13,959 bases of DNA from the NCBI RefSeq assembly GCF_003334315.1, contig NZ_QOWR01000079.1, one strand, 5' to 3'. A program made the position numbers and the translations under genes. Position 1 is the stretch's first letter. Each line of letters opens with the position of its first letter. This document shows positions 1 to 493 of the stretch, in pieces. Source of the DNA: Escherichia coli (GTDB lineage: Bacteria; Pseudomonadota; Gammaproteobacteria; Enterobacterales; Enterobacteriaceae). A model generated the notes under the pieces. It did no database searches and was not told the origin of the DNA. It saw only the letters and a program-made list of their open reading frames with translations.

Positions 1-66
1 GAGAGAAGATTTTCAGCCTGATACAGATTAAATCAGAACGCAGAAGCGGTCTGATAAAACAGAATT
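1..66 (+). other. 23S-5S rRNA internal spacer (distal part of an rrn operon)
   Basis: Sequence immediately precedes the 5S rRNA and matches my recollection of the E. coli rrn 23S-5S spacer (gagagaagattttcagcctgatacagattaaatcagaacgcagaagcggtctgataaaacagaattt). The ORF-track 60-aa ORF on the minus strand here is spurious. Confidence 0.6.
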
Positions 67-186
67 TGCCTGGCGGCCGTAGCGCGGTGGTCCCACCTGA
101 CCCCATGCCGAACTCAGAAGTGAAACGCCGTAGCGCCGATGGTAGTGTGGGGTCTCCCCATGCGAGAGTAGGGAACTGCCAGGCAT
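67..186 (+). rRNA. rrfC: 5S ribosomal RNA
   Basis: 120-nt sequence tgcctggcggccgtagcgcggtggtcccacctgacccc...gggaactgccaggcat is the canonical enterobacterial 5S rRNA. The rrfC assignment is inferred from the downstream tRNA-Asp/tRNA-Trp pair, which is characteristic of rrnC. Confidence 0.93.
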
Positions 187-238
187 CAAATTAAGCAGTA
201 AGCCGGTCATAAAACCGGTGGTTGTAAAAGAATTCGGT

Positions 239-315
239 GGAGCGGTAGTTCAGTCGGTTAGAATACCTGCCTGTCACGCAGGGGGTCGCGGGTTCGAGTC
301 CCGTCCGTTCCGCCA
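239..315 (+). tRNA. aspT: tRNA-Asp (anticodon GUC)
   Basis: 77-nt sequence ggagcggtagttcagtcggttagaatacctgcctGTCacgcagggggtcgcgggttcgagtcccgtccgttccgcca. Cloverleaf-compatible, anticodon GTC, encoded 3' CCA. Confidence 0.95.
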
Positions 316-323
316 CCCTAATT

Positions 324-399
324 AGGGGCGTAGTTCAATTGGTAGAGCACCGGTCTCCAAAACCGGGTGTTGGGAGTTCGAGTCTCTCCGCCCCTGCCA
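324..399 (+). tRNA. trpT: tRNA-Trp (anticodon CCA)
   Basis: 76-nt sequence aggggcgtagttcaattggtagagcaccggtctCCAaaaccgggtgttgggagttcgagtctctccgcccctgcca. Anticodon CCA, encoded 3' CCA. Confidence 0.95.
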
Positions 400-403
400 G
401 AAA

Positions 404-436
404 TCATCCTTAGCGAAAGCTAAGGATTTTTTTTTC
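404..436 (+). terminator. Rho-independent terminator of the rrn operon
   Basis: Perfect hairpin atccttagc-gaaa-gctaaggat followed by a run of 9 T directly after tRNA-Trp. Confidence 0.75.
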
Positions 437-493
437 TGAAATAACCCTCTCTGAAGTAAATCCTTCTACCGGCATCCTTGCCAGCCATTCAGA

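Follow-up and report, generated by a model that had tools for sequence, protein, structure and literature searches.

The stretch of DNA analysed here (hereafter the window) comprises 13,959 bases from Escherichia coli, and its first 437 positions almost certainly represent the promoter-distal end of the rrnC operon, comprising the end of a spacer, rrfC, aspT, trpT and an intrinsic terminator, all read on the + strand. Alignment to the K-12 rrlC/rrfC coordinates assigns positions 1–66 to the 23S-5S intergenic spacer, of whose 92 nt they form the last 66 (the 3′ two-thirds); the window begins 26 nt past the annotated 23S 3′ end, and the promoter-proximal half of the operon lies outside it. The mature 5S rRNA gene rrfC (120 nt) occupies positions 67–186, as delimited by alignment to the annotated K-12 rrfC, and is matched by Rfam RF00001 (5S_rRNA) at 69–184 with 92.8 bits (E = 2e-19). 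A 52-nt spacer (187–238), the same in K-12 rrnC and rrnH, separates the 5S gene from the first tRNA. This spacer contains a small hairpin at 195–225 (−11.3 kcal/mol, z = −2.2), identical in rrnC and rrnH, which is possibly a processing signal.

Two tRNA genes follow, each with its CCA end encoded. ARAGORN called tRNA-Asp(GUC), aspT, at 239–315 and tRNA-Trp(CCA), trpT, at 324–399, and the 8-nt inter-tRNA spacer read from the sequence between them (316–323) is CCCTAATT. Rfam tRNA matches were obtained for both genes, at 239–312 for tRNA-Asp (67.7 bits, E = 3e-13) and at 324–396 for tRNA-Trp (64.6 bits, E = 2e-12). Over the entire 13,959-base window ARAGORN reported exactly these two tRNA genes, both on the + strand. 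The 5S, tRNA-Asp and tRNA-Trp sequences all match their E. coli K-12 counterparts (rrfC, aspT and trpT) base for base; tRNA-Asp is identical to K-12 aspU as well. The first-pass annotation had placed a 5S gene, tRNA-Asp(GUC), tRNA-Trp(CCA) and a terminator in this order within positions 1–437 and had named tRNA scanning as the means of checking it. Rfam, ARAGORN, a pattern scan and RNA folding bear out this order, with both tRNAs called independently by ARAGORN and Rfam and every element scoring well above chance.

The operon ends in an intrinsic (Rho-independent) terminator at 406–437 on the + strand, with stem arms at 406–414 and 419–427, a GAAA loop at 415–418, a T-tract at 428–435 and a final CT. 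The hairpin, ATCCTTAGC-GAAA-GCTAAGGAT (406–427), is a perfect 9-bp stem that begins six bases past tRNA-Trp and is followed by eight more T at 428–435. The pattern scan of the + strand recovered the same element (9 pairs, of which 4 are G-C, loop GAAA, followed by TTTTTTTTCT) as the only terminator-like site reported in the first 1,800 bases. Positions 400–437 fold with a predicted energy of −14.3 kcal/mol, against an average of −4.4 kcal/mol for shuffled sequences (z = −5.1), and none of 200 shuffles was as stable. Thus, a stable, G+C-containing hairpin is followed directly by a U-tract on the transcribed strand. The first-pass annotation had called this terminator strong, a description that rests on sequence, covariation and literature. 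The rrnC terminator cut read-through by 96% in R. palustris (bioRxiv 10.1101/2021.11.01.466785), and the same preprint cites Chen et al. 2013 for a strength in E. coli 25 times that of the tonB terminator. T7 RNA polymerase is also stopped by the rrnC terminator, as a class I signal.

To place the window on the chromosome, we compared it with annotated and complete E. coli genomes. In K-12 MG1655 the locus is annotated as rrsC-gltU-rrlC-rrfC-aspT-trpT, followed by hdfR (minus strand), maoP, yifB (minus), ilvLXGMEDA, ilvY (minus), ilvC, ppiC (minus), yifN and rep. Past the operon, the window follows the K-12 + strand gene for gene through hdfR-maoP-yifB-ilvLXGMEDA-ilvY-ilvC-ppiC. The closest complete genomes (NT1N31 and ET490) carry these genes in the same order, and there, as in K-12, the locus is preceded by yieP-16S-tRNA-Glu-23S. 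The convergent neighbour of the operon is hdfR (494–1333, minus strand), a 279-aa open reading frame annotated as hdfR in NT1N31, ET490 and K-12, which ties the end of the operon to unique sequence. Over 1–13882 the window agrees at ~100% with several strains, including ET490, ET670 and JX21CE35. Its first 3 kb have a match in every complete E. coli genome (5,426/5,426), and these matches always cover rrf, tRNA-Asp, tRNA-Trp, hdfR, maoP and yifB. On NC_000913.3, window position 1 corresponds to ~3,946,634 and position 13882 to ~3,960,514, both on the + strand, while oriC is annotated in K-12 at 3,925,744–3,925,975. The rrnC end therefore lies ~21 kb clockwise of oriC and, because the + strand of the window is the K-12 + strand, transcription of the operon runs with the clockwise replication fork. 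Alignment to a reference, which the first-pass annotation had also named as a check, thus puts the window at the K-12 rrnC-hdfR-ilv locus, and the proposal that chromosomal position and orientation are fixed holds.

Both ends of the window have the look of short-read contig edges, with the start inside an rrn repeat and the end inside an insertion sequence; these two elements probably explain where the window starts, which is a point of provenance only. Among the matches listed in a survey of other species (see below), the Asp-Trp junction lies within 350 nt of a DNA end in 87 of 120 loci. The last 77 bases (13883–13959) are unlike the sequence that separates yifN from rep in K-12 and in the closest strain. 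Their matches are to the terminal ~78 bp of elements of the IS3 family annotated ISEc36/ISEc27, which occur in 78 of 5,426 genomes, for the most part on plasmids. From this we infer that an IS3-like element has inserted between rep and the yifN pseudogene of the source strain. On the minus strand at ~13380–13829, the closest genomes carry an annotated frameshifted pseudogene of a PemK/MazF-family toxin, named yifN in K-12. Two further features lie in the ilv region. The ilvG gene (3926–5572) is an intact 548-aa frame, for which the closest genomes give the catalytic subunit of acetolactate synthase 2 as the product; in K-12 MG1655 it is annotated as a pseudogene. Upstream of it, Rfam RF02744 (Rev39_5p_UTR, “soft rot Enterobacteriaceae”) matches 3617–3906 with 157 bits, a span that runs from the ilvL leader peptide gene up to ilvX and corresponds to the ilv leader/attenuator region.

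According to the first-pass annotation, the distal Asp-Trp pair marks rrnC among the E. coli rrn operons. We examined this against the annotation of the seven K-12 operons, where the 5S gene is followed by aspT and trpT in rrnC, by aspU only in rrnH, by thrV and a second 5S gene (rrfF) in rrnD, and by no distal tRNA in rrnA, rrnB, rrnE and rrnG. Asp plus Trp after 5S is thus confined to rrnC. A 155-nt query that spanned tRNA-Trp and the terminator together with 35 nt of flank matched 5,426/5,426 complete E. coli genomes, with one place per genome as the median and two as the maximum, and the Asp-Trp pair can therefore occur essentially once per genome. The K-12 rrnC distal end (NC_000913.3 ~3,946,700–3,947,070) has the same order, the same 52-nt 5S-Asp and 8-nt Asp-Trp spacers, an identical 5S, tRNA-Asp, tRNA-Trp and hairpin, and the neighbours hdfR, maoP, yifB and ilv in common with the window. 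Within 1–437 the window differs from it at two positions, both outside the RNA genes: K-12 rrnC has G instead of A at position 56, and one extra A in the terminator tail. Further downstream, ilvG is a pseudogene in K-12 and intact in the window.

The discriminating power is unevenly distributed along the operon end. The aligned 5S positions are identical to rrfC, rrfH, rrfG and rrfD of K-12, and the 5S gene was accordingly rejected as a discriminator of rrnC. Adding tRNA-Asp does not help, since the K-12 rrnH distal end (rrfH-aspU) is 100% identical to window positions 2–315 through spacer, 5S, spacer and tRNA-Asp. Homology to rrnH stops right after the tRNA-Asp CCA; rrnH lacks tRNA-Trp and continues with a different terminator hairpin and then dkgB, whereas the window has tRNA-Trp and hdfR. 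Assignment of the window to the distal end of rrnH was rejected because of this complete divergence past position 315, and assignment to rrnD because tRNA-Thr and a second 5S are absent from the ARAGORN and Rfam calls. Thus, the pair marks rrnC only from tRNA-Trp onward: the diagnostic part is tRNA-Trp and everything after it, plus the unique flank hdfR-maoP-yifB-ilv, while the 5S and tRNA-Asp portion of the claim does not distinguish rrnC from rrnH.

To assess how widely this arrangement is conserved, we scanned for the Asp-to-Trp junction as an exact pattern and found it in at least 120 species genomes. The matches listed fall in Enterobacteriaceae, Erwiniaceae, Yersiniaceae, Pectobacteriaceae, Morganellaceae, Budviciaceae, Orbales (Gilliamella, Orbus) and Avibacterium. 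Among them, a 5S gene lies within 400 nt upstream of Asp-Trp in all 73 loci with enough upstream sequence (73/73). The CCCTAATT spacer is identical in 17 of the 120 other species loci listed, the rest having variants of 7–10 nt, and the commonest 5S-Asp spacer lengths in other species range from ~31 to 98 nt, compared with 52 nt in the window. A terminator-like hairpin with a T-tract occurs within 90 nt past tRNA-Trp in 98 of the 120 loci listed, as against 13 of 600 shuffled controls; in Morganellaceae the hairpin lies ~40 nt downstream. The 22 loci listed that have no recognisable hairpin within 90 nt nearly all have AT-rich flanks and include Orbales (Gilliamella, Orbus, Zophobihabitans) and Avibacterium. 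In 80 of the 113 loci listed, a convergent hdfR homologue ends no more than 600 nt past trpT; in several others it lies further off. Modules of other Enterobacterales, Orbales and Pasteurellales share the Asp-to-Trp junction, and most of the Enterobacterales listed add a homologous hairpin and T-tract. The order 5S-Asp-Trp is conserved across Enterobacterales, as are the terminator hairpin and the convergent position of hdfR.

The hairpins of other species have variable loops and stems that differ by compensatory changes. We aligned 65 distinct homologous Enterobacterales hairpins from among the matches listed. In these 65 sequences, 99.3% of alignment cells form standard pairs and six of the nine stem pairs show compensatory change; alignment pair 18–31, for example, occurs as U-A (34 sequences), A-U (19) and C-G (9). 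The observed covariation score was reached by none of 500 shuffles (0/500), and sliding the 3′ arm by 1–3 columns lowered pairing to 32–57%. The hairpin is under selection as a structure.

The tail of the terminator carries a small peculiarity. It reads T9-CT in the window (427–437) versus T8-A-TCT in K-12 and NT1N31, with one A missing, and this is the only difference from NT1N31 within the first 500 bases. The T9 tail has no exact match in the 5,426 complete E. coli genomes, where the best full-length matches reach 99.4% over 155 nt and 98.5% over 65 nt, with a single gap each. The one-base change is a variant private to this strain or else a sequencing error in the homopolymer. Since the tract spans T6 to T10 across species, we expect no functional consequence of the T9 tail.

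The rrnC hairpin also appears in plasmid sequences, where it is probably the “rrnC terminator” part of tRNA and RNA expression vectors. In one published plasmid, a suppressor tRNA is followed by an identical ATCCTTAGCGAAAGCTAAGGAT and T8, and the same hairpin with its native flanks occurs in a vector-building primer. In the plasmid copies the tail has its K-12 form, whereas in the window it is one base shorter. That these printed sequences are the named part is inferred from vector design, as neither passage labels the hairpin.

In the proposed course of expression, RNA polymerase would start at the rrnC P1/P2 promoters ~5.5 kb upstream and make one precursor carrying 16S, tRNA-Glu, 23S, 5S, tRNA-Asp and tRNA-Trp. 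It would be released at the U-tract after the 9-bp GAAA-loop hairpin, and RNases would then cut the mature RNAs from the rrnC precursor. Such precursors are processed by RNase III, by RNase E (which acts on the 5S precursor), by RNase P at the tRNA 5′ ends, and by 3′ exonucleases, which cut back as far as the encoded CCA. Since the distal tRNAs would ride on the rRNA transcript, the sole supply of tRNA-Trp would be coupled to ribosome synthesis. The gltU-aspT-trpT (rrnC) unit is essential; trpT is its predicted essential tRNA and the only gene for a tryptophan tRNA (PMC11480407).

Several other readings of the operon end were weighed against this one. The identity with rrnH up to position 315 raises the question of whether the 5S and tRNA-Asp part is rrnH-type or recombinant, that is, a hybrid operon made by gene conversion or inversion for which “rrnC” would describe only the flank. 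The window matches the K-12 rrnH sequence at 100% up to this point, including A56 in the 23S-5S spacer, where K-12 rrnH has A and K-12 rrnC has G. Moreover, rrn operons are known recombination substrates; in W3110, rrnD is Glu-type and rrnE Ile/Ala-type, the reverse of MG1655 (PMC5179076). However, gene order in the closest complete genomes is K-12-like throughout (yieP-16S-tRNA-Glu-23S-5S-Asp-Trp-hdfR), and one spacer polymorphism common to another copy is the usual product of concerted evolution, which leaves the locus and the operon products unchanged. A56 is consistent with such concerted evolution, or with gene conversion among rrn copies, and we regard a hybrid operon as very improbable; an ordinary rrnC end remains our reading of positions 1–437. 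The hairpin at 406–427 might, in addition, end the convergent hdfR transcript on the minus strand and so act bidirectionally. Its stem is a perfect palindrome whose minus-strand fold reaches −13.0 kcal/mol (z = −4.65), it sits 66 nt past the hdfR stop codon, and an A-run precedes it on the minus strand. Nevertheless, the minus strand continues after the stem as GAUUUC with three U only, the pattern scan gave no minus-strand site, and the convergent hdfR arrangement, though conserved, does not require a shared terminator. Given a minus strand without a U-tract, we judged a role as the hdfR terminator unlikely, if less so than a hybrid operon.

The origin of the distal tRNA transcript was considered in the same way. 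One literature statement favours a separate promoter for these tRNAs, which would make aspT-trpT their own transcription unit, driven from inside the 23S or 5S region by an internal promoter and independent of rrnC P1/P2, and an internal promoter for a spacer tRNA has been shown within 16S (PMC5179076). The statement cites its reference 18, but that reference, Berg et al. 1987, deals with translation inside the 16S gene of rrnB, an operon without a distal tRNA. Our scan returned no sigma-70-like promoter site on the + strand in 1–437, including 1–238 upstream of aspT, and no perfect consensus promoter anywhere in the window; an independent aspT-trpT promoter inside the window was rejected on the empty + strand scan of 1–437. 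Published constructs also argue against a separate unit. In one study trpT is treated as part of the long rrnC transcript, citing Young 1979, and uncoupling it from rrnC needed an rrnB terminator inserted upstream of trpT (PMC12956327); in another, plasmid complementation with the rrnC tRNAs worked only with the strong lpp promoter (PMC11480407). The tight 5S-Asp-Trp linkage in 73/73 species loci, among the matches listed, points the same way. A separate aspT-trpT unit is thus highly doubtful, and transcription from rrnC P1/P2 is the reading we retain. Slightly less credible still is a joint proposal in which the sole tRNA-Trp gene is also fed by an internal 23S promoter upstream of the window and the T9 tail alters read-through into the antisense strand of hdfR. 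If it were true, the 23S promoter would keep tRNA-Trp supplied during rrn P1/P2 shutdown, in parallel with the riRNA promoter reported for spacer tRNAs.

The first-pass annotation had called this region ordinary, and we agree: it is a textbook distal end of rrnC, already known and with nothing novel in it. That the distal tRNAs lie on the rRNA transcript, that the tRNA-Trp gene is single and essential, and that the operon closes with a strong terminator since reused in plasmids has been known since the late 1970s. The value of the region is that of a landmark only, which marks the organism as E. coli, places the window in the rrnC-hdfR-ilv region beside oriC and fixes its strand.
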